Assembly: GCF_018398935.1 (NCBI RefSeq)
Contig: NZ_CP074694.1
Coordinates: forward strand, 930,001-962,000
DNA: 32,000 bases
Reading direction: 5' to 3'
Origin: Telmatocola sphagniphila
Lineage (GTDB): Bacteria; Planctomycetota; Planctomycetia; Gemmatales; Gemmataceae
A model generated the notes under the pieces. That model saw only the letters and a list, made by a program, of their open reading frames with translations, was not told the DNA's origin and searched no databases. The first letter of the stretch is position 1. Every line of letters starts with the position of its first letter. The position numbers were made by a program, and so were the translations under genes. This document shows, one piece after another, positions 2,534 to 22,511 of the stretch.

Positions 2534-2749
2534 AGGTGGTTCCAACGCTCGTTAAATCGTGGTAGGTGTGGTAATATTCAAGGCTTTCGGCCCGTTTCTA
2601 ACGTCTAGGTAAGATATACGCAAGGATAATCTACTAGGCGTGAAAATTTCGGCGAACATCCCGCAAGTTTGAAGTATCCATTCGTTCCCGGTTGTTGTAA
2701 GAAAAGCCCTCCTTCGTCGAATAAGAGAATAGAGGATTAGGCTTTCAGA

Positions 2750-3181
2750 ATGGTGAGAAACGTGAATAACTACATGACGAAACCAGAAAACAAGCCCCAG
2801 GGAGGCCGTCGCAAGGCTTCTCGAGGCTGCCTGATACTATGCCTGGATTCGAAACTGCCCCTGCCTCAGATCAAGGAATCCTTGACCGCGGAAGGCTGGG
2901 AAGTGTTCTGTGCGAAAAAATCTTCCGGCTTACGAGCTCTGTCTTGTGAAATGGATTCCGCCCTGGTGGTGCTCAGCGATCATCTGCCCGGCAACGAGAG
3001 CGGTTTTTTGATGGCCAGCAAACTCCGACTTTCCTGTCCCAGCATGCGGGTGGTGATTGTCGGAAATCGGCCTTCCGCCAAGTCGGAACGTCTGGCCGAC
3101 TTCGTCGGTGCGGAAAGTTATGTCGCCGTGACTGACCTGGAACAGTTTACGAATCGGCTCAAAGAAATCTCTCAGAAGTAA
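2750..3181 (+). CDS. Stand-alone atypical CheY-like receiver domain protein
   Basis: 143-aa ORF. The alternating beta/alpha pattern 'CLILCLDSK ... ALVVLSDHLPGNESGF ... MRVVIVGN ... ESYVAV' resembles a receiver domain. An Asp sits at the acceptor position ('LSDHLPG'), but there is only one acidic residue after beta1 and no obvious conserved Lys. A strong hairpin follows. Confidence 0.45.
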   Translation: MVRNVNNYMTKPENKPQGGRRKASRGCLILCLDSKLPLPQIKESLTAEGWEVFCAKKSSGLRALSCEMDSALVVLSDHLPGNESGFLMASKLRLSCPSMRVVIVGNRPSAKSERLADFVGAESYVAVTDLEQFTNRLKEISQK

Positions 3182-3205
3182 AGTTTTATTTCTGAGCTCA
3201 AATTT

Positions 3206-3235
3206 GGACCTCCGGGCGTCAAATCCCGGAGGTCC
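3206..3235. terminator. Bidirectional terminator hairpin between convergent genes
   Basis: 11-bp perfect stem (3206-3216 ggacctccggg / 3225-3235 cccggaggtcc) with an 8-nt loop. It lies in the 60-nt gap between the + strand ORF ending at 3181 and the - strand RidA gene ending at 3242. Flanks are A/T-rich, with no long U-tract. Confidence 0.55.
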
Positions 3236-3241
3236 TCGTGT

Positions 3242-3712
3242 TTATACCTTCACTTCCAGAATACACTCGATTTCCACGGAAATATTCCCGGGTAGGCTAC
3301 CCATCCCCACGGCGCTGCGGGCTCCGACGCCGGCCTCCGCTCCAAATACATCGGCCATTAATTCGGAATAACCGTTAATGACCTTAGGATGGTCGGGAAA
3401 ATCGGGAGTGGAGTTCACCATCCCCAGAGTTTTGACCAGACGGACCACTTTGTCCAACGAGCCGAGATAATCCTTCAACGTAGCCAGGATAGCCAGACCG
3501 ACCTGTCGAGCGGCCGCTTTGCCCTCTTCCAGATTCAGATCTTTACCCACCACCCCGGTGATCAGAGTGCGATCCGACTTTAAAGGGCCGTGACCGGAAA
3601 CGTACAAAATATTGCCAACCTGAACGCAGGGTTTGTAAACGCCCACGGGTTTGGGAGCGGGCGGAAGTACCAACTGCAATTCTTGAACGCGCTTTTCTGC
3701 ACTAGCCGACAT
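3242..3712 (-). CDS. RidA/YjgF/TdcF family protein (reactive intermediate deaminase family)
   Basis: 156-aa ORF with typical family size. 'NILYVSGHGP', 'AARQVGLAILATLK' and the C-terminal 'ARSAVGMGSLPGNISVEIECILEV' match the YjgF/RidA pattern. Confidence 0.85.
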   Translation of the reverse strand: MSASAEKRVQELQLVLPPAPKPVGVYKPCVQVGNILYVSGHGPLKSDRTLITGVVGKDLNLEEGKAAARQVGLAILATLKDYLGSLDKVVRLVKTLGMVNSTPDFPDHPKVINGYSELMADVFGAEAGVGARSAVGMGSLPGNISVEIECILEVKV

Positions 3713-3749: not shown

Positions 3750-4619
3750 ATGACGGCCTTGATGCAAAGCGATATTTCTGGTTTTTCCTGCCGACGAGGT
3801 AAAGTCCGGGATGTCTACGATTTGGGAGATAAGCTGCTGATCGTAGCCACCGATCGGATCAGCGCTTTCGATTGGGTCATGCCGACTCCCATCCCCGGAA
3901 AAGGGCGTCTACTTTCCTCGCTGACAAAGTTTTGGCTCAACTGGCTGAAGGTTCCCAATCACTTCCTAAGCGACAATCTGAATTCGTATCCCCCGGAATT
4001 CCATGAATACGCCGATCAATTGAATGGCCGAGCGATGCTGGTCCGCAAAACGGAAGTGATTCCGTTCGAATGCGTTGTTCGCGGCTACCTGGCCGGTTCC
4101 GGCTGGAAGGAATACAAGCAATCGCTTTCTGTTTGCGGCGTCAAGTTGCCGAGCGGTCTTCGGGAAAGCGATCGATTGCCCGAGGCGATTTTCACACCCG
4201 CCACCAAAGCGGAAACGGGCCACGATGAAAATGTCAGTTCCGAATATATGGCCCATGCGATCGGGAAAGAGACCACGGACGAACTCGCCCGACGGAGTAT
4301 CGAGATCTATAACCGGGCCGCCAGTTATGCCCGCCTGCGTGGGATCATCATTGCCGATACGAAATTTGAATGGGGCCTTTTGCCCAGTGGGGAGATCATC
4401 CTGATCGACGAAGTCCTGACTCCGGACAGTTCCCGATTCTGGCCGATGGATCACTACCAACCCGGCCGAGGACAGCCTTCGTTCGATAAACAGTATCTTC
4501 GCGATTGGCTGGAATCGACCGGCTGGGATAAGCAGTCTCCGCCGCCGGTGTTACCCGAGAAAGTTGTGGCCGAGACGCTGGCGAAATATACCGAAGCTTA
4601 CGAGCGACTCTCGAGGTAA
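3750..4619 (+). CDS. purC: Phosphoribosylaminoimidazole-succinocarboxamide (SAICAR) synthase
   Basis: 289-aa ORF. 'GKVRDVYDLGDKLLIVATDRISAFD', 'VRGYLAGSGWKEY', 'IFTPATKAE.GHDENV' and 'IIADTKFEWG' are hallmark PurC motifs. Confidence 0.95.
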   Translation: MTALMQSDISGFSCRRGKVRDVYDLGDKLLIVATDRISAFDWVMPTPIPGKGRLLSSLTKFWLNWLKVPNHFLSDNLNSYPPEFHEYADQLNGRAMLVRKTEVIPFECVVRGYLAGSGWKEYKQSLSVCGVKLPSGLRESDRLPEAIFTPATKAETGHDENVSSEYMAHAIGKETTDELARRSIEIYNRAASYARLRGIIIADTKFEWGLLPSGEIILIDEVLTPDSSRFWPMDHYQPGRGQPSFDKQYLRDWLESTGWDKQSPPPVLPEKVVAETLAKYTEAYERLSR

Positions 4620-6905
4620 TTACGGCCAGTGGACGATCGGAAGCAACTCGGGCACAGAAGGAAGACTTCCTTCGGTGAGAATCATTTTGACACCCTCCGC
4701 CCACTCTCCAGAGTTTGCCCCTTTAATGGGATCGTGAAAACGGGGTTCTCGAAGCAAACGTTCGAATTGAAAACTGGTGGTACGACTTCTCAGCCAGCTA
4801 AATTGCCAGTTTTTCTCCCCTTCCTTCAGCGGAAGCTCGGCCCAGAGCAAATCCCCCACGGAGTATGAGATGGGCGAGCCGTTGCTTTCAAGTGCGAAAA
4901 GATAACTGATACCGTTTTTGTCCCGAACCCCGTCGCCATCTTCCCGGAAGCTCCAGGTCGTGGTTTTGTCAGAACCGCTCGGGCGATGATTGATGGTCAG
5001 TTTCCCGGCCGGTCGGATCCGGAATTCACGCAGGGCATCGGGTATGAACAGCCGGAAGGATTTCGGATTGAGTGAGAAAGAAGCCGTTGCGGCGAAGCGG
5101 CTGAAATGGTCGCAAAGATCTTCGCGGGTGGGCTGCCCGATTCGATGCAGAATATGCAGATATTCTCGCAAATCCCGCTCGCTGTTCGCGTTCAGCCATT
5201 CCGCCAGTTTCGGCCAGTCGAAGGTTTTTTCCGGTCCCGTCGGATTAATCGATTTCAGCTGATCCAGAAGCATTTGCTGGCCGAATTGAATCGCAAGCTG
5301 ATTGGCCCGCACCCAGCGGCTTTGAAACTGCGGTCGGAGATTATCCGGTATGGCGGTCAGCGACCAATTATCCACGCCCGGATAGTCTCGTTTCAACCGC
5401 GTCAGTCGATCCGAGATCATCCTCAGGGGATCGCGAGATTGCAAATCGCTTTCGCTCAAAAGTAATAGAGATTTGTTGTCCGACGGATTGCCGAGGATGC
5501 CCAGGGTTACCGCCAACTCCTGAATGGTACGCAACTTTTCCAGAGCCCGATTCCATTCGCTCCGGAGAACTTCCACTTCCCGGAAGTCCAGGGCCGCCAG
5601 CTTCAAGCGATCACCGGAGGCGAACGGACTGCCGTTGGAATCCACCTGTAATTTACGGAAGTTGCTATCCCATTCCGGTGTCAGCTCCGTCACAAAAAGC
5701 AATTCGTTACCGCGATTTTTCAAGCGGCTGAAAAACTGGCGGGCATCGGTCACGGCGGTGCGGAGCGTAGGAATTTCGGAGAGATATTTTTCGCGAGCTT
5801 GGACGACTTCGGTCTGGGCCCAATCCTTTTCGAAGGTTTTTGGCAGTGAGAGATTTTTGAGAGACTCTTCGAGCCGATTCAAATCGTCGAGGCTGCGCGT
5901 CTTCACCGGTTGGGAGAGTCGAGCCAGGTCATCTCGCAGCTGAATGTAGGCCTCGATTTCCTCGAGATGCTTGGCGATATAATTCTGTTTGTCCCGAGCT
6001 AGTTGTTCGAATTCCGGGTCGTTACGGAGTTCGAGAAGTTCACTCCGTTTTTTCGAAAGCTGGGCTCCGGCCAGGCGTGAAGATGCAGTCTGACCTTCCC
6101 GAGCCTGAAAACCATCGACCTTGGCTTCCAGAGCCAGTTGAACGTCGCTGGTTTGCGTAACCACCAGAACGCCCACTCCCAAAAGCAAAAGGGCCAAAGC
6201 CACGGCAGAGGTGAACACAGCTCGGGCCAGACGGAGATTGGATCGACTGGCCTCCTCGCGATGAAAATAAGCCGTTTCGAAAAGATCCTGAGCCAGCGGG
6301 CGGATACCAAAGGGTTCATCGCGCTGCTTGACTTTATCGGTCACATCGGGCAGATGCGTGGAGGTGGTGTAGATCTCCACGCAGAGGCTGCCGAATCCCC
6401 CGTCGTCGGCGAGAGAATAGTTCTCATCGAATAACTTTCTTACAGTTTCCTTGCGATTCTCGATTCGCTGCATCCATTCCGAATAGCTCATCAAGGTGTC
6501 GGCCAGCAGATCGCATTTCGTCAGCACGATACCGATGGGAAAGCCGCCGACGAGAAACTGATCCTGCCGCCGGCTTTGCAGGGTGCCGAGGAGATCGACT
6601 AAATTCGATAAGCGCTGCTCGAGGTGGGTGACGTCGGAAGAGGCATCCAGAATCAGAATCAACCCGTCGGCCTTCCACTTGGGATCGAGGTTTGTGGAAT
6701 CGGAGTATTCGATCTCGTGGAATTGAACGGGAAGATCGACAGCGATTTTCGAATTGGCACTCGGTGTGAAGAGCAGGCCAGCGCTCCCCGCCGTGGAATT
6801 GTTGTTTTTCGCCTGGATGCTCAGACTGTTCAACAGTGCAGTTTTCCCGGCTCCCGTGGGGCCGAGAACTACGATTTCCAGAGTTTGTCCGACAGATCGA
6901 GTCAT
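4620..6905 (-). CDS. Membrane-anchored P-loop GTPase with a large uncharacterised extracytoplasmic region (helical stalk plus beta-rich C-terminal domain)
   Basis: 761-aa ORF. It has a P-loop 'GPTGAGKT' (aa 15-22) and a hydrophobic strand ending in Asp, 'LILILDAS' (aa 82-89). The G4-type 'TKCD' (aa 129-132) is an NKxD variant of the kind seen in dynamin/IRG-type GTPases. One hydrophobic helix, 'AVFTSAVALALLLLGVGVLVV', spans aa ~229-249. About 330 aa of E/R/L/K-rich, heptad-like sequence follow, then ~170 aa with a beta-like pattern. I recognise no family for the C-terminal ~510 aa. This is the last gene of the Tol/Exb-like cluster, 21 nt after the upstream gene. Confidence 0.75.
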   Translation of the reverse strand: MTRSVGQTLEIVVLGPTGAGKTALLNSLSIQAKNNNSTAGSAGLLFTPSANSKIAVDLPVQFHEIEYSDSTNLDPKWKADGLILILDASSDVTHLEQRLSNLVDLLGTLQSRRQDQFLVGGFPIGIVLTKCDLLADTLMSYSEWMQRIENRKETVRKLFDENYSLADDGGFGSLCVEIYTTSTHLPDVTDKVKQRDEPFGIRPLAQDLFETAYFHREEASRSNLRLARAVFTSAVALALLLLGVGVLVVTQTSDVQLALEAKVDGFQAREGQTASSRLAGAQLSKKRSELLELRNDPEFEQLARDKQNYIAKHLEEIEAYIQLRDDLARLSQPVKTRSLDDLNRLEESLKNLSLPKTFEKDWAQTEVVQAREKYLSEIPTLRTAVTDARQFFSRLKNRGNELLFVTELTPEWDSNFRKLQVDSNGSPFASGDRLKLAALDFREVEVLRSEWNRALEKLRTIQELAVTLGILGNPSDNKSLLLLSESDLQSRDPLRMISDRLTRLKRDYPGVDNWSLTAIPDNLRPQFQSRWVRANQLAIQFGQQMLLDQLKSINPTGPEKTFDWPKLAEWLNANSERDLREYLHILHRIGQPTREDLCDHFSRFAATASFSLNPKSFRLFIPDALREFRIRPAGKLTINHRPSGSDKTTTWSFREDGDGVRDKNGISYLFALESNGSPISYSVGDLLWAELPLKEGEKNWQFSWLRSRTTSFQFERLLREPRFHDPIKGANSGEWAEGVKMILTEGSLPSVPELLPIVHWP

Positions 6906-6926: not shown

Positions 6927-7589
6927 TTAACGTTCGGGCATATTGTCGCTGGCGACTGGCGGGAAATTGACGCTCAGGCCATTGTCTTTCGCCCAGCTCT
7001 CGAGCTGCTTCACCAGGTAGCTTTCCCGATAGGCCGTGTCTTTGTATACGAGAATATCAATTCGCTGCAGTTGTTTTTCCGCGTCCCGGCGCCGGGTAAT
7101 AAGCAAATCCTTGAGCTTATCGAAGCTGATGGGTTCCCGGGAATTTTCGATTAGATAGTAGGCCTCGTCGGGGCGAGCGCCGCCCAGCACGATAATCTTG
7201 ACGCGATTCTCGTTTTTCACTTCCTCGGGCACCACGACCGGGAGTTGGGCCGCTTTCTTCTCAGGTTCTTTACTCGGCTCTTCCTTCTCGACGGAATGCT
7301 GGTCGTTACCGGGGCCACCCGGCCGTCCGCCCCCGCTGCCTCCCAGGCCGTAGCCGCCGTCTCCAAAGAGGATGAGAGCGGCCAGGATCGCACAGATAAT
7401 CCCCGAAGCGAATCGGCTCCAGCCGCAGGCCCAATCGGGGAGTTTTTTGCGAAAGTAGAATTTGCCTGCCACTTTGAGAACGCTGGCCATGGCATAATTG
7501 CCCACCAGAAACGCCCCTGCTACGGCAAAGCAATTGATGGCGATTTGTCCCACGCGACTGACGGCATCGGCAAGTAAGAAAAGATTCAT
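6927..7589 (-). CDS. Two-TM membrane protein with Gly-rich/charged linker and ExbD/TolR-like C-terminal domain
   Basis: 220-aa ORF whose ATG overlaps the upstream stop as ATGA (7586-7589). It has two hydrophobic helices (aa ~14-37 and ~60-76). A 'GDGGYGLGGSGGGRPGGPG' tract and an E/K/P-rich linker follow. The C-terminus 'VKIIVLGG..YYLIENSREPISFDKLKDLL..RIDILVYKDTAYRESYLVKQLESWAKDNGLSVNF' follows by eye the ExbD/TolR periplasmic-domain pattern. Confidence 0.65.
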   Translation of the reverse strand: MNLFLLADAVSRVGQIAINCFAVAGAFLVGNYAMASVLKVAGKFYFRKKLPDWACGWSRFASGIICAILAALILFGDGGYGLGGSGGGRPGGPGNDQHSVEKEEPSKEPEKKAAQLPVVVPEEVKNENRVKIIVLGGARPDEAYYLIENSREPISFDKLKDLLITRRRDAEKQLQRIDILVYKDTAYRESYLVKQLESWAKDNGLSVNFPPVASDNMPER

Positions 7590-8128
7590 CGGTTCCCCTG
7601 CTTGGAACGCGGAGTGACCGCTTCATCAAAGCTGTAAGAAACTCCCGCAAACCAACGGCGATAATTTTCAATATGCTGCTGCAAAGGGGCTCCGCGTTTG
7701 GGTAGAAGAATCAGGAACAACGGCTCTCTTCCCCCGGAAGCTCGAATGTGCTGATCGATCATCTTCTCCGCTTCCGACTGATCGGAAATTTCCTGCCGCT
7801 GGCCGTTGGTATAGGTGATCAATTTTCCGGTCGCCAAATCGACTTCCAGCAATTTAATGGCCAATTTTTCACTGATGTCGCCTTGCTCGGCTCGCAACCG
7901 TTGGAGTTCGCGCCGATTGCGTTCCAATTCCTGTCGCAGCGATTCGACATCCTTGGGCAACGCCTCTTCGGTCGGCAGTTCGTTTTCGGGGTTTAGATCG
8001 GGTCCTTCGCCCGGATTGCCGGCCTGGCTGACGAACGGCATCAAAAGGAAAATGCAGAAGAGCAGAATGAGAACGTCGATCAAGGGAATGAAAAATCGAG
8101 TGACGCTCTGTTTTGGTCGTTGAATCAT
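7586..8128 (-). CDS. ExbD/TolR-like biopolymer transport protein with a coiled-coil insertion
   Basis: The ORF track gives 7586..8143. The ATG at 8128 ('MIQRPKQ') forms an ATGA overlap with the upstream stop and is the likelier start. 'RFFIPLIDVLILLFCIFLLMPF' is a single TM helix carrying the conserved Asp of ExbD/TolR/MotB-type stator subunits. It is followed by the charged coiled-coil-like 'VESLRQELERNRRELQRLRAEQ'. The C-terminal domain is 'KLITYTNGQRQEISDQSEAEKMIDQHI...LFLILLPKRGAPLQQHIENYRRWFAGVSYSF'. Confidence 0.7.
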   Translation of the reverse strand: MIQRPKQSVTRFFIPLIDVLILLFCIFLLMPFVSQAGNPGEGPDLNPENELPTEEALPKDVESLRQELERNRRELQRLRAEQGDISEKLAIKLLEVDLATGKLITYTNGQRQEISDQSEAEKMIDQHIRASGGREPLFLILLPKRGAPLQQHIENYRRWFAGVSYSFDEAVTPRSKQGNR

Positions 8129-8649
8129 TTCAGATAACCCCATTTCTCTTCTTCGGGATTACCGGCCATGGAACGAATAATGTCTCGACCGAGGCTGACG
8201 ATCCAGGTGGGCAGGATGTTCAGCAGGGCCATCAGCAAGCCGCTACCGGTGGCCGTGATGGCCGGGGCATATTTTCGAATGATTTCCTGAGGCGTAACGA
8301 CAGGACCATTGATGGAATTGAAGGTCTGCAGGATCGCCGCGACGGTTCCCAGCAATCCCAATAGGGGAAACCATTCCGCCGCCTGAGCGAGATGGTTCAA
8401 CCAGCGATCCGCGGATTCGTCGAAATTGTGTTCTTTCCAGCGCAAGGCCTTCCAGCTCAATGAGATCTGAACCAGAAATAGAATGGCTCCCAGGCTCAGG
8501 ATCAGCCAGTCCATCCCGGAATTTTTAATTCGCTTCAGGTAATCGTGTCGAGCGTCGGGAGGCAGCGCGCAGGCCACCAGGGCCGCGCCGAAGAGCGGGA
8601 GGAGGACGAGGATAGTCGGTAGAAGCTGACGAATGATAAAGGGTCGCAA
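8125..8649 (-). CDS. MotA/TolQ/ExbB-family proton-channel protein (short form)
   Basis: 174-aa ORF. 'FPLLGLLGTVAAILQTF' and 'APAITATGSGLLMALLNILP' match the two conserved C-terminal TM motifs of the MotA/TolQ/ExbB family (LLGLLGTV.G and A..TT..GL...IP). The annotated start is TTG (8649). The next in-frame Met (aa 46) would remove the first hydrophobic segment, so the start is uncertain. Confidence 0.75.
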   Translation of the reverse strand: MRPFIIRQLLPTILVLLPLFGAALVACALPPDARHDYLKRIKNSGMDWLILSLGAILFLVQISLSWKALRWKEHNFDESADRWLNHLAQAAEWFPLLGLLGTVAAILQTFNSINGPVVTPQEIIRKYAPAITATGSGLLMALLNILPTWIVSLGRDIIRSMAGNPEEEKWGYLK

Positions 8650-8703: not shown

Positions 8704-9111
8704 TCAGGACCGATTTTCCAGGAACCAATCGGGCAGGGGCTGAACCTGACCTTCGCGATTTATGCTTGCTAAAGTACTGCTTCCTTCGGCCAGCAGTTCA
8801 GAGTTTCGAAAAACCTCGTATTTGTGTTCGATGCGGACCAGGGTGGAACGAGTGACGGTCGTCCGGATGGTCAGCAGATCGTCGTAGCGGGCGGGCTTAC
8901 GATAGCGGACTTCAACTTTCGTCAAAGCCAGCAGAAAGCCCTTGTCCTCCATCTCTTTATAAGTCAGCCCCTGATCCCTGAGCAGTTCGGTTCGGGCCTG
9001 CTCAAAGAAAACCAGGTAATTCGCATGGTGCAGAAAGCCCATCTGGTCTGTTTCCGCGTATCGGACTCGAATTTGGACCGTTCCGCTGAGAGGTGCTTTC
9101 TCACCACTCAT
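8704..9111 (-). CDS. YbgC/4HBT-family acyl-CoA thioesterase
   Basis: The ORF track gives 8704..9192. The ATG at 9111 ('MSGEKAPLSGTVQIRVRYAETDQMGFLHHANYLVFFEQARTELLR') overlaps the lepB stop as ATGA and gives the normal family length of ~135 aa. The 'V.Y.ETD..G.. HA.Y..FFE.AR.E.L' pattern is the 4-hydroxybenzoyl-CoA thioesterase/YbgC signature. Confidence 0.85.
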   Translation of the reverse strand: MSGEKAPLSGTVQIRVRYAETDQMGFLHHANYLVFFEQARTELLRDQGLTYKEMEDKGFLLALTKVEVRYRKPARYDDLLTIRTTVTRSTLVRIEHKYEVFRNSELLAEGSSTLASINREGQVQPLPDWFLENRS

Positions 9112-10778
9112 TTTATCACTCCAAATCGACTCAGGGGGAAGTAGACCATGACCGCTTTCCCCAATAACAGTCTTTCCGGCACCAGTCCCCACATCCGGCC
9201 GTCGAGGCTGGAAGTGCTGTTATCGCCAAAACAGAGATAGTGACCGGGCTGAACGTAGAAGGTTTGTACGGTGCTGCAGGGATTGTAGCTCGGCGGGAAG
9301 AATTTCTCCTGGATCGCGCCGTAGCCTTGCCGGCCGCCATTGGTTCCGCAGGTGTAGAAGATGTCTCGCCAGATTCGAATCGAATCGCAGGTCACATCCC
9401 CCCGGCTGCCAATTCGAGCCGGTTGCATGCGATCGTTCGGATGGCTCTGATGCACATGAGGAATCGTGTAATCGGCTCCTTTATCGAAGCTCAGAACTTT
9501 GTTATCCACCCATACCGTCAGCCGGCAATCGACATTCGCCAGTCGAATTTCATGCCGACCTTCGCCATTGATACCCGACGAAGTCTTGGAGAGCACAGTC
9601 GATTTATCGTTGTCGTTGGCATCGACTCGAATCAAGGTGCAGTTACCACCGTCGAATACGGCTTGAAAGCGGTAGGGGCCTTTATTGAGCTCCAATATCA
9701 GCTGAGCATCTTTGGATTGAAAATCGGCTTTGCACTCGAGGATCAGGTCGGTGACAACTTCTAGACTAGGACTAGAGCGGGTTTGGTTGTAACCCAGGCT
9801 GTCGTTGATCTCCATCGGTTCGAGGGAAGGCTGATCCTGCCAGCTGGCCAGGTGGTGATAGCGGATCCAGCCCAGATCCGAGCCAGTATGTTTGAAGCCG
9901 GTTTCCCGGGCCTGCCACTCTTTATCGTAACCGGGCTGAGCATGCCAGCGGGTTTTTGCGATACCTTTTAAGCTCGCGGGCTGGTGGTCCATATCGAAGA
10001 CGATAATTCTTTGAGCGAGTATGTCTGTAGGGCTTTTTCGAATGATCTCAAATTTGCCTTGCTCGAAAGCGGAGATTGCATCCGGGTGCGAGGGGTACAT
10101 ATTAGGATAGAGCCAGAGGTTATTGGGATCTTCCGGCAGCTTTTCATCGGGATACTTCAAATCCTTGCAAAGATAGAGGTCGCCATCGAACACGGCGATC
10201 GTTTCCCCGGGCAAACCCACCAGTCGCTTGATGTAGTTGGTGGGCACCCGTTCGCGCACCGAGAAGGGTTCCACGGGCCATTTGAAAACCGGCACGTCGA
10301 ATCGTTTGGGAGGATTGATGTAATAGGCCGGTTTTAAAACCAGTACCCGGTCGCCGCTGCGCACGCCGGAGAAATCGACCGCATCCTCTTTGAGCACTTT
10401 ACCCGTAGAGTCGGTTTTCGCGATGAATTTGTAACCGCAGTTCGAACAGATGTAGCTGGTGATAATCGAACGCTGGCCGAAATCGTTCGAAGAAGAGTTT
10501 AACGGGCTCTTGTAGCCGCACTCCCGGCAGGTGACCATTTCATGATCACCATACAAGGTCTCCGCCATGGATCCGGTGGGGATTACGAACGCTTCCGCGA
10601 CAAACCTTTGCAGCATCAGGACCAGGACAAGCACGAACACAACGGTTTCGAACATTTCCCGGACGAGATTCTTGGGTTCGACTTCATGGTTTTTTTTCTT
10701 GGCAAAGAAGCTTCGCAGGATCGTGGAAAGCCAGTCGGACTTTGTGGTATCGGGCGGATTGGTAGGGGAACTCGGCAT
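9108..10778 (-). CDS. lepB: Signal peptidase I (S26 family), long form with Cys4 zinc-ribbon and large beta-rich insertion
   Basis: 556-aa ORF. It has an N-terminal TM 'VVFVLVLVLMLQRFV' and catalytic Ser box 'IPTGSMAETL'. It also has the Lys box 'YIKRLVGLPGETI' and the C-terminal box 'GDNSTSSLDGRMWGLVPERLLLGKAV'. 'CRECGYKSP...CSNCGYKF' lies between boxes B and D, and ~300 extra residues lie between the Lys box and the final box. Confidence 0.85.
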   Translation of the reverse strand: MPSSPTNPPDTTKSDWLSTILRSFFAKKKNHEVEPKNLVREMFETVVFVLVLVLMLQRFVAEAFVIPTGSMAETLYGDHEMVTCRECGYKSPLNSSSNDFGQRSIITSYICSNCGYKFIAKTDSTGKVLKEDAVDFSGVRSGDRVLVLKPAYYINPPKRFDVPVFKWPVEPFSVRERVPTNYIKRLVGLPGETIAVFDGDLYLCKDLKYPDEKLPEDPNNLWLYPNMYPSHPDAISAFEQGKFEIIRKSPTDILAQRIIVFDMDHQPASLKGIAKTRWHAQPGYDKEWQARETGFKHTGSDLGWIRYHHLASWQDQPSLEPMEINDSLGYNQTRSSPSLEVVTDLILECKADFQSKDAQLILELNKGPYRFQAVFDGGNCTLIRVDANDNDKSTVLSKTSSGINGEGRHEIRLANVDCRLTVWVDNKVLSFDKGADYTIPHVHQSHPNDRMQPARIGSRGDVTCDSIRIWRDIFYTCGTNGGRQGYGAIQEKFFPPSYNPCSTVQTFYVQPGHYLCFGDNSTSSLDGRMWGLVPERLLLGKAVMVYFPLSRFGVIK

Positions 10779-20658: not shown

Positions 20659-21489
20659 CTAGAGAGCCTGAATTACGATACCATATCGGTCCGCTAATGC
20701 TGTTGTAGCTTCCACATCGAGGATGATAGTCTTTCCCGCTTCAATCGCCAACACTCGACCGCCCGCCTTGTGAATAGTTTCGATAGTCTTTTCACCCACA
20801 GTTGGCACGTCGAACCGCATATCCTGCTGCGGTTTCGCCACTTTTACCACGGTAAAGCCCCGTTTACTGAGCGTTCCCGCCCGTAAAATGGCCTCATCCG
20901 TACCTTCAATGGCTTCCACCGCTATCACGGCTGCATCATGAACCATCACGCTCTGGCCGATGTCTAATCGACCCATCTCTTTTGCAATCTCCCAACCGAA
21001 GCGGATATCGGCTTCTTCGCTCGCGGTCGGTTTACGTTTAGTATGAATACCCGGTTTTACAAGCAGTTCGGGACAGGTGTCGAGGGCCGACTCGCAATGG
21101 AGGCCTTCTTTTTCGTATTCGCCAATGATTCCCGAAAGTATCGAATCATCGCGATTGTCCCTTTTGCGTCCGAAAAACCACCAACGAATCATGCGTAGAT
21201 CTGGCATAAGACGTATGAACCAAAATGGGGAATACAGAATGGTTTTATCGATCTTCCCAGCCATGGTGTAACGTTTCACCCCGGCTTTGCGAAAACTTCG
21301 AATCGGCTTATTGAGAGCTCCCAGGCGGACCCAGATAAAATCTTGCACATACGGCAGAAAGTCTTCTTTACGTGCCAGGCCACTGATGCCGAGACAAATG
21401 ACCGGACGCTGGATGGCGTGCGCTTTCTGCGCAAACAGGATCGGAAATCTTCCGCGTCCGGCTATCAGTCCGATGGGTTCCGCATTCAT
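20659..21489 (-). CDS. lpxI: UDP-2,3-diacylglucosamine diphosphatase LpxI (DUF1009)
   Basis: 276-aa ORF. It has the N-terminal 'IGLIAGRGRFPILFAQKA', then 'DIGQSVMVHDAAVIAVEAIEGTDEAILRAG'. The C-terminal 'RFDVPTVGEKTIETIHKAGGRVLAIEAGKTIILD' fits LpxI. Its ATG overlaps the lpxD stop as ATGA (21486-21489). Confidence 0.8.
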   Translation of the reverse strand: MNAEPIGLIAGRGRFPILFAQKAHAIQRPVICLGISGLARKEDFLPYVQDFIWVRLGALNKPIRSFRKAGVKRYTMAGKIDKTILYSPFWFIRLMPDLRMIRWWFFGRKRDNRDDSILSGIIGEYEKEGLHCESALDTCPELLVKPGIHTKRKPTASEEADIRFGWEIAKEMGRLDIGQSVMVHDAAVIAVEAIEGTDEAILRAGTLSKRGFTVVKVAKPQQDMRFDVPTVGEKTIETIHKAGGRVLAIEAGKTIILDVEATTALADRYGIVIQAL

Positions 21490-22511
21490 TCGTTATCCGC
21501 CAAACCGATCTTTTTTTTGATATTTCGTAGATCCCGGCGAATCTCGGGAAGTTTTTCCAGCGACATCATGATCCGCATTTGCTCTTTATCGGGAGTCGCC
21601 GGTGAACCGAGCATTCGAGCACCCGCGGGGACATCCTTATGAATACCGGCCTTGGCACCCAGTATCGCCCGATCTCCAATATGGCAATGGTCGGCTATAC
21701 CCACCTGACCCGCCATCACCACGTAATCCCCGGTCGAGGAAGAGCCGGCAATACCGACTTGGCTGACAATCAGATTATGACGTCCCAGCGAACAATTGTG
21801 GCCAATCATCACCAGATTATCAATCTTGGTGCCTCTCCCGATGATCGTGCGACCGAAAGTCCCCCGATCAATAGTCGTTCCGGCCCCAATTTCCACATCT
21901 TCCTGGATTTCCACGCTTCCCTGCTGGGGAACTTTGATGTGTTGGCCTTTAACAGTTCGATAGCCGAAGCCGTCGCAGCCGAGGACTACGTGAGCGTGAA
22001 TGCGGACTCGCTCCCCGATCTTGCAGCCATCGTACAGGATCACTTGGGGAAAGATCGTCACATCCGCAGCAATTTCACAATCCGCGCCGATGATCGACCC
22101 AGGATAAATTTTGCAACCTGGCCCGATCTTCACACCGGGCCCGATGCAGACGAAAGCGCCAATAGCCACATCCGGAGCGATTTCCGCCGTGGGATCTATT
22201 TGTGCGGTGGGATGTATCCCCAGCAAAGTTCGATCGGGCTTCGGATTTAATTTTTGAACGATCTTGGCGAAGGCCAGAAGTGGATCCTCGATTCGGATCA
22301 AGGGCTTGCCTACACCCGTTAAGTGAGGAGCAGCCACTGCGGCGACCGCAGGAGATTCTTTAAAATCGTTGAGGTATTTTTCGTTTTCCAGAAAGACGAG
22401 ATCGCCGGGCTGCGCTTCAGACAACGGCCGCGCCCCTGAAATCAGGCAATCGCCGTTCCCCTCCACGATACCATCAATCCATGAAGCTATTTCGCGTACC
22501 GTGACGGCCAC
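21486..22511 (-). CDS. lpxD: UDP-3-O-acylglucosamine N-acyltransferase
   Basis: 341-aa ORF. The N-terminal uridine-binding region is 'VREIASWIDGIVEGNGDCLISGARPLSEAQPGDLVFLENEKY'. It is followed by a long run of hexapeptide (left-handed beta-helix) repeats. Confidence 0.92.
   Translation of the reverse strand: MAVTVREIASWIDGIVEGNGDCLISGARPLSEAQPGDLVFLENEKYLNDFKESPAVAAVAAPHLTGVGKPLIRIEDPLLAFAKIVQKLNPKPDRTLLGIHPTAQIDPTAEIAPDVAIGAFVCIGPGVKIGPGCKIYPGSIIGADCEIAADVTIFPQVILYDGCKIGERVRIHAHVVLGCDGFGYRTVKGQHIKVPQQGSVEIQEDVEIGAGTTIDRGTFGRTIIGRGTKIDNLVMIGHNCSLGRHNLIVSQVGIAGSSSTGDYVVMAGQVGIADHCHIGDRAILGAKAGIHKDVPAGARMLGSPATPDKEQMRIMMSLEKLPEIRRDLRNIKKKIGLADNE

Follow-up and report, generated by a model that had tools for sequence, protein, structure and literature searches.

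Proton motors of the MotA/ExbB/TolQ type power flagella, TonB uptake, Tol-Pal, gliding and type IX secretion, and Zorya defence, and each new type of motor partner so far has meant a new route of energy transfer across the envelope. Gemmatales and related Planctomycetota do without FtsZ in cell division, and their Tol-Pal set is no more than rudimentary. Tol-Pal has been reported as largely reduced in Planctomycetes (PMC8871954), and transducers other than TolA, encoded beside tolQ and paired tolR-like genes, have already been proposed in the Planctomycetes-Verrucomicrobia-Chlamydiae (PVC) group, in a paper that does not mention a GTPase (PMC12204202). A precedent for control by a GTPase is found in Myxococcus, where MglA-GTP controls the TolQR-like Agl-Glt machine via the membrane protein GltJ (PMC11135422). 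The gene considered here lies in a stretch of 32,000 nucleotides (nt) of the Telmatocola sphagniphila (Gemmataceae) genome (NZ_CP074694.1, positions 930,001 to 962,000), referred to as the window; coordinates are positions in this window and refer to its minus strand unless stated otherwise. The open reading frame at 4620-6905 (stop codon at 4620-4622) encodes a protein of 761 amino acids (aa) with 100 % identity to the hypothetical protein KIH39_04020 of T. sphagniphila. From its homologues, the protein is assigned to an uncharacterised, Planctomycetota-restricted family of bitopic inner-membrane proteins. It is read here, tentatively and with a likelihood a little short of even, as a lineage-specific subunit through which a reduced Tol-like envelope machine would deliver its output or be anchored, and in which the cytoplasmic G domain would be a switch or assembly module that is degenerate in this copy.

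Searches of KIH39_04020 against Pfam and NCBIfam returned nothing above threshold and only sub-threshold P-loop matches (SRPRB, cobW, MMR_HSR1, small_GTP), and sequence searches of the PDB, with the single protein and with a 103-member profile, gave P-loop-level matches only. A word-indexed homologue search found two relatives besides the protein itself, even with an alignment as seed. An exhaustive HMMER search using an alignment of the first relatives recovered 612 representative clusters at E ≤ 1e-3, of which 289 were at E ≤ 1e-30, and the typical length of family members is 810-850 aa. The scan of GTDB species genomes yielded 41 loci, nearly all from Gemmataceae, Gemmatales and other Planctomycetota metagenome-assembled genomes (MAGs); a match in Acaryochloris was marginal. 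Automatic labels in IMG call some relatives "GTPase SAR1 family protein" and others "hypothetical", and no description of the family was found in literature searches. A match of the whole protein to a characterised family, which the original prediction (made from the sequence alone) had named as a point to check, was looked for in Pfam, NCBIfam and Foldseek and none was found, secretion-system ATPases (TssM) included.

A full-length AlphaFold2 model was built with the 103-sequence alignment and has a mean predicted local distance difference test (pLDDT) score of 91.1. It predicts the architecture that had been proposed from the sequence: a cytoplasmic G domain, a transmembrane (TM) helix, a helical region and a distal beta domain. 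The N-terminal, small-GTPase-like domain (aa 1-200, 6306-6905) is recognised by Foldseek and by weak SRPRB and MMR_HSR1 Pfam matches, and its G domain occupies aa 9-180 of the model. Foldseek matches of the G domain include Arl2, RagC/D, Arl3, SRbeta and EngB at E 5e-5 to 1e-3, as well as RABL3, in a set that spans E 5e-5 to 4e-3. By its predicted structure the G domain belongs to the Ras/Arf-like superfamily (TRAFAC class). It is followed by one continuous predicted helix (aa 201-249, 6159-6305) made up of an Arg-rich juxtamembrane segment and the TM segment. The latter is a single hydrophobic helix at aa 229-249 (nt 6159-6221) with a Kyte-Doolittle value of 2.62, at the residues where it had been placed before. 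Counts out of 103 here and below refer to an alignment of 103 long-form members. For the 15 aa that precede the TM helix the net charge averages +4.15, for the 15 aa that follow it +0.19, and in 100 of the 103 members it is the preceding flank that is more positive. This bias, together with the need for nucleotide in the cytoplasm, leads to a predicted N-in/C-out topology with a periplasmic C-terminal region, which agrees with the extracytoplasmic C-terminus of the original prediction. The segment between the G domain and the TM helix (aa 181-228, nt 6222-6365) contains the Arg-rich helix and a motif, "EP[FY]G[VI]xEL", that is strongly conserved, with A212 kept in 98/103, R225 in 89/103 and L226 in 94/103; it is a candidate lever or interface linking the G domain to the membrane.

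The predicted periplasmic region begins with an all-alpha part (aa 253-606, 5088-6149) of about 15 predicted helices, the longest of 38 residues, in which E, R, K, Q and L make up 45 % of aa 252-590. The long helical stalk that had been proposed is borne out as to composition and all-alpha character, and the string quoted for it is present at aa 287-330, but a single heptad-repeat stalk is not what the model shows. The helices are followed by a distal immunoglobulin-like beta-sandwich (aa 609-747, 4665-5081), which contains both of the beta strings previously quoted (aa 667-693 and 699-718) and gave only weak local matches, to E-set and to Tp34/HftA/YcnI-type sandwiches. The protein ends in a conserved Pro-rich tail, "...LPSVPELLPIVHWP" (4623-4664), with the family consensus G-[IL]-P-x-V-P-D-L-[LM]-P. 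This tail ends all long forms; P752 is invariant and P749, L754 and P756 occur in at least 90 % of members. Because Foldseek with the full model gave G-domain matches only, the C-terminal 509 aa (aa 253-761) were modelled apart, as a structural search of the C-terminal region had been suggested. The resulting model is confident (mean pLDDT 92.4, predicted template modelling score 0.78) and found nothing in the PDB at E ≤ 1e-3. As modelled, the all-alpha part is novel among solved structures. Some members are short forms of about 520 aa (510-540), which end after the helix equivalent to aa 440-467 of the window protein and lack the second helical subdomain, the beta-sandwich and the Pro-rich tail (L024, L026, L027, L029, L030, L032, L035-L037, L041; P0125, P0131, P0141, P0143, P0148, P0151). 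Since the short forms stop there, the conserved core of the family extends from the G domain over the TM helix to the first periplasmic helical subdomain. Most of them still sit within the gene module described below.

The gene for KIH39_04020 is the last of a module in the order signal peptidase I (SPase I), YbgC, TolQ-like, TolR-like p185, p220 and GTPase, and the Tol-like operon setting that was first noticed is thereby upheld, with the gene downstream of YbgC-like, MotA/TolQ/ExbB-family and TolR/ExbD-like genes. The MotA/TolQ/ExbB-family proton-channel subunit (8125-8649) matches PF01618 with 39.2 bits against a cutoff of 22.9 and is closest to TolQ and ExbB models, although it reaches only 26.7 bits of the 221 required by the TolQ equivalog. 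It also falls far below the ExbB equivalog cutoff and has almost no cytoplasmic domain. TolQ and ExbB are about 230-245 aa long, and this protein, of 174 aa, may represent a distinct minimal motor subfamily. The TolR/ExbD/MotB-like subunit p185 (7586-8143) combines a single N-in TM helix with a coiled-coil segment and an alpha/beta domain. Its TM helix, "FIPLIDVL", contains the invariant Asp23, on which Asp23 of the Escherichia coli TolR TM helix was placed by hhalign (E = 2.3e-4). Weak Pfam ExbD (PF02472) matches were obtained for nine of 14 p185 relatives, confined to the TM helix (best E 7.7e-4), and no ExbD-type match was obtained for the periplasmic domain. The TolQ-like and TolR-like pair thus shows the features expected of a MotA/ExbB/TolQ-class motor driven by protons.

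Between p185 and the GTPase gene lies p220 (6927-7589), a conserved module member with no assigned family. Its protein has two TM helices joined by a positive loop, a linker that is Gly-rich and then Lys/Glu/Pro-rich, and a C-terminal alpha/beta domain of about 90 aa, for which the sequence pattern suggests beta-beta-alpha-beta-alpha-beta. No Pfam match was found, a PDB search returned low-complexity matches only, there was no similarity to TolR or TolA, and an alignment of its C-terminal domain with that of p185 was non-significant. p220 travels with the motor genes and not with the GTPase gene, as seen at one locus (L124) that has p185 and p220 without a GTPase gene.

In the window the MotA-family and p185 genes overlap by 19 nt, p185 and p220 overlap by 4 nt, and 21 nt separate p220 from the GTPase gene; the block from SPase I to the GTPase gene is predicted to be translationally coupled. 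No terminator-like site was found in a scan within and between the motor, p220 and GTPase genes. In the whole block scanned a single match turned up, within the SPase I gene, and shuffled sequences gave more such sites than the block itself. The module is collinear in 29 of 39 informative loci seeded with the GTPase gene. Metagenome loci seeded with p185 gave a similar picture from the other side, with the GTPase gene at most 2.5 kb downstream in 27 of 36 informative loci (and at 2.7 kb in one more) and a MotA-like gene upstream in 50/54. Short-form members adjoin divergent p220 homologues that had been missed by BLAST. A search across the loci for a further conserved module gene (Pal/OmpA-, TolB- or CpoB-like) found none, and among large proteins predicted to reach into the periplasm, the GTPase is the one linked most consistently to the module. 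One GTPase locus (L028, CAZFGM010000072.1) lies in a MAG binned as "Alcaligenaceae"; it carries a planctomycete-type module of MotA-like, p185 and GTPase genes and is therefore probably a mis-binned contig. At another locus (L070) an open reading frame at 2733-3386 (plus strand) follows p185 and a p220-like gene and has a short N-terminus, then a TM helix, and no P-loop before it is truncated where the contig stops. It may encode a form of the partner protein that lacks the G domain, or be an unrelated gene.

In the favoured reading, a TolQ-like pentamer and the TolR-like subunit with its proton-relay Asp would form a motor driven by the proton motive force, and the small Ras/Arf-type G domain in the cytoplasm would be joined by one continuous helix through the membrane to the folded periplasmic region. 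The periplasmic part would be the output or anchoring arm, the role taken elsewhere by TolA, TolB and Pal, and it would fall to the G domain to govern assembly, localisation or engagement, in most of the family as a true GTP switch or a nucleotide-dependent dimeriser. The protein is accordingly rated as an accessory to a motor-linked envelope system, and synteny and structure prediction set the limit to how far the whole claim can be trusted. Several findings weigh against it. The window copy lacks G2 and G3. No His occurs in the TM columns of any of the 103 members, and there is no SHLS motor-docking motif. The layout of p220 is more TonB/TolA-like than that of KIH39_04020, and p220 could, to judge from this layout, be the real transducer. 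Because the short forms lack the distal half, reach to the outer membrane is not essential family-wide. Linkage is missing from about 25 % of loci whichever of the two genes serves as seed, GTPase genes that stand alone occur in non-conserved neighbourhoods, and there are motor-only clusters and p185 plus p220 clusters without a GTPase gene. Confidence in the coupling to the motor that we infer stays a little short of even because of the missing His and SHLS, the missing TolA/TonB C-terminal domain, the folded helical domain, the TonB-like p220 and the unlinked quarter of loci.

A wider proposal would be that Gemmatales and related Planctomycetota replace TolA-TolB-Pal with a GTPase-gated machine of proton motor, p220 and transmembrane GTPase, which would combine the GTP state and the membrane potential and would tether or remodel the outer membrane or peptidoglycan. 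This is doubtful, but if true it would add a new class of partner for a 5:2-type motor, with a Ras-like switch fused in cis to a periplasmic arm. The family is also a concrete candidate for outer-membrane handling in FtsZ-less, Tol-Pal-poor bacteria.

The loci at which the GTPase gene stands alone in non-conserved surroundings (10/39), the motor clusters without it and the lack of the docking motif would also suit an autonomous transmembrane signalling GTPase, in which a cue from the envelope or from outside the cell is picked up by the periplasmic domain and changes the state of the G domain, or the reverse, independently of the motor, the synteny reflecting co-regulation. The continuous helix that runs from the G domain across the membrane would serve such transmembrane signals. 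This explanation is nevertheless unlikely, since collinear linkage of about 75 % in both directions, among relatives down to 25-30 % identity and with overlapping or abutting genes, exceeds what is usual for co-regulation, and no conserved effector or output partner is encoded nearby.

The state of the G domain in the window copy bears on whether it acts as a switch at all. The family alignments show, in order, G1, an insertion of about 25 aa, a "VVPYPV" strand, "hhhhDCDG", "ADxLvLVvDAS", "LVLTKCDLLA" and a G5-like "ATA". The strings on which the original prediction relied are all present: GPTGAGKT at aa 15-22, LILILDAS at aa 82-89 and TKCD at aa 129-132. The G1/P-loop GPTGAGKT (6840-6863), read directly from the sequence, conforms to the family pattern Gx[PS]xAGK[ST], in which G15 is conserved in 99/103, G20 in 100/103 and K21 in 99/103 members. 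The guanine-specificity motif G4, TKCD (6510-6521), is likewise well kept in the family (D 103/103, C 100/103, K 88/103). At the G5-like position the family has A-T-A (T 89/103, A 93/103) and the window protein T-T-S. At the column of the candidate G2 switch I Thr, Thr is found in 55/103 members and the window protein, which lacks G2, has Asn51; its switch I-like region (aa 37-57) has low pLDDT, and about 14 columns are missing after residues 40-44, behind helix 1.

The strand LILILDAS (6639-6662) had been taken for a Walker B motif lacking the glycine of G3. This assignment is wrong, because the strand aligns with beta4 of SRbeta (HMMER places it on "AVIFLLDAA"), in the model it (aa 81-87) comes third among the strands that follow the P-loop, and the true DCDG lies upstream of its family counterpart "ADxLvLVvDAS"; it is thus beta4, after switch II. 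The canonical Walker B/G3 of the family is the DxxG of "hhhhDCDG", with Asp in 94/103 and Gly in 90/103 members, and it is intact in 71/85 representatives of a separate 85-sequence G-domain alignment. What the window protein has lost is therefore not one glycine but the whole segment: after residue 66 (aa 66/67, 6705-6710) about 30 well-occupied family columns with "hhhhDCDG" and the G3/switch II region are deleted. Its closest relatives, P0002 and P0003, share the deletion. P0004 to P0007, the next closest at 32-35 % identity, retain DxxG, and the loss of G3 is for this reason regarded as derived and lineage-specific. The family is best described from these motifs as one of apparently canonical GTPases, with the window protein as a degenerate, pseudo-GTPase-like member. 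The window copy probably keeps guanine nucleotide binding and would work as a locked or non-switching pseudo-GTPase. Such a natural variant without G3/switch II would be useful for dissecting switch-dependent functions.

The two deletions, the Asn at the G2 Thr column and the poorly modelled switch I-like region could be taken further, to a purely structural envelope tether or scaffold in Telmatocola whose relic G domain would have lost both nucleotide binding and hydrolysis. We regard this as decidedly unlikely, since G1 (GxxGAGKT) and G4 (TKCD) are both intact in KIH39_04020 although it shares only 52 % identity with P0002, its nearest relative, and their retention points to selection for nucleotide binding; P0002 itself has kept G1 and has Q for K in G4 (LTQCD).

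A TssM/IcmF-like secretion component, that is, an inner-membrane P-loop NTPase with a periplasmic helical and beta domain touching the outer membrane, would have an analogous layout, with a cytoplasmic P-loop domain joined via the membrane to a large periplasmic helical-plus-beta domain, and NTPase activity of TssM is documented (PMC3346141). No homology was detected, however, as there is no IcmF/TssM match in Pfam or NCBIfam and no TssM structure among the Foldseek matches, and the two also differ in TM count (one helix against three), in NTPase class (a Ras-like G domain with TKCD) and in genomic context, with no secretion-system genes in the module; this highly improbable reading was rejected on domain content and topology. 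A dynamin/IRG-like membrane-remodelling GTPase was suggested by the T-for-N form of G4, TKxD, which dynamins and IRGs also have, and Irga6 is a low-ranked Foldseek match (rank 26, root-mean-square deviation 25.9), but this is barely credible and was likewise rejected on domain content and topology, as the G domain is minimal (about 190 aa) and best matched by the Arf/Arl, Rag, SRbeta and EngB structures, there is no Dynamin_N or IIGP Pfam match, and the membrane separates the helical region from the G domain, which rules out a stalk of the dynamin type. The features that define the TolA/TonB, TssM/IcmF and dynamin/IRG families were each looked for and are absent from KIH39_04020, which accordingly belongs to none of the three. 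Zorya and other MotAB-like anti-phage defence systems were rejected as well, since PADLOC (ZorA/ZorB and other defence models) returned no system match; the motor genes and p220 had no match and the GTPase matched at P-loop level only.

The module opens with the SPase I gene (9108-10778), the first gene of the conserved block, which encodes a very long protein (556 aa) whose S26 catalytic domain is split by large insertions into three matched stretches. Two CxxC pairs just past its TM helix ("CRECGYKS...CSNCGYKF") give weak zinc-ribbon matches. The next gene (8704-9192) encodes a YbgC/FadM-family acyl-CoA thioesterase (TIGR00051, 91.7 bits against a cutoff of 68.7). Its listed GTG start overlaps the SPase I gene by 85 nt, and the true start is probably Met28 (nt 9111), because this codon follows directly on the SPase I stop and shortly precedes the thioesterase domain; with this start the two genes abut exactly. 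At the other end of the module, purC (3750-4619, plus strand) and the GTPase gene converge at 4619/4620 with zero intergenic bases, and no terminator-like site was found at the junction. The lipid A genes LpxI and LpxD are encoded in the same window (20659-22511), and their presence implies that a lipopolysaccharide outer membrane is made, which is in need of tethering and invagination, although nothing TolB- or Pal-like is encoded close to the Tol-like motor.

Compared with Tol-Pal, the module has the same opening order of a YbgC-family thioesterase, a MotA/TolQ/ExbB-family subunit and a TolR-like protein with a TM Asp, followed by inner-membrane-anchored proteins with periplasmic domains, so that p220 stands at the place of tolA in the E. 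coli operon and the GTPase gene at that of tolB. It differs in that homologues of TolA, TolB and Pal are absent and p220 and the GTPase protein are found instead, in that the TolQ-like protein is short, and in that KIH39_04020 has a cytoplasmic G domain and no SHLS. TolA and TonB share with it the position beside a TolQR/ExbBD motor. Its TM helix, however, is not N-terminal and has no SHLS/His, a folded helical domain takes the place of an extended linker, and no Pfam, NCBIfam or Foldseek match to a TolA/TonB C-terminal domain (PF06519/PF03544/PF13103) was found. The TolA/TonB-style transducer fused to a nucleotide switch of the original prediction can thus stand as a reasonable functional analogy, but not as homology, given the SHLS, the C-terminal domain and the folded helices.

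The Arf/Sar/Arl/SRbeta/Rag branch resembles the protein in predicted fold, G1, G4 and the "hhhhDxS" beta4 after switch II, and SRbeta also in being membrane-anchored, but all sequence similarity is below threshold. The anchor of KIH39_04020 is C-terminal to the G domain and leads into a predicted periplasmic region of 510 aa, its family has the insertion of about 25 aa after helix 1, and G2 and G3 are missing from the window copy. The putative transducers of the von Willebrand factor A (vWA) type of the PVC group (PMC12204202) share its phylogenetic neighbourhood and the pattern of a tethered, non-TolA/TonB protein beside a TolQ-like gene, with two different small single- or double-pass proteins encoded alongside; KIH39_04020 has no vWA domain and no SHLS/His motif and adds a cytoplasmic GTPase. 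No Glt-like genes were found near the module, and the likeness to the Agl-Glt machine of Myxococcus (AglRQS, the TonB-like proteins GltG/GltJ, and MglA) lies in the TolQR-type motor and the inner-membrane proteins that reach into the periplasm. There, a Ras-like GTPase exerts control via the cytoplasmic parts of inner-membrane proteins (PMC11135422), which makes it the closest precedent in function for the role proposed for the G domain. The GTPase of Agl-Glt is separate and soluble whereas that of KIH39_04020 is fused in cis, and the periplasmic parts are non-homologous. If KIH39_04020 does couple to its motor, it would be the first nucleotide switch built in cis into such a machine.

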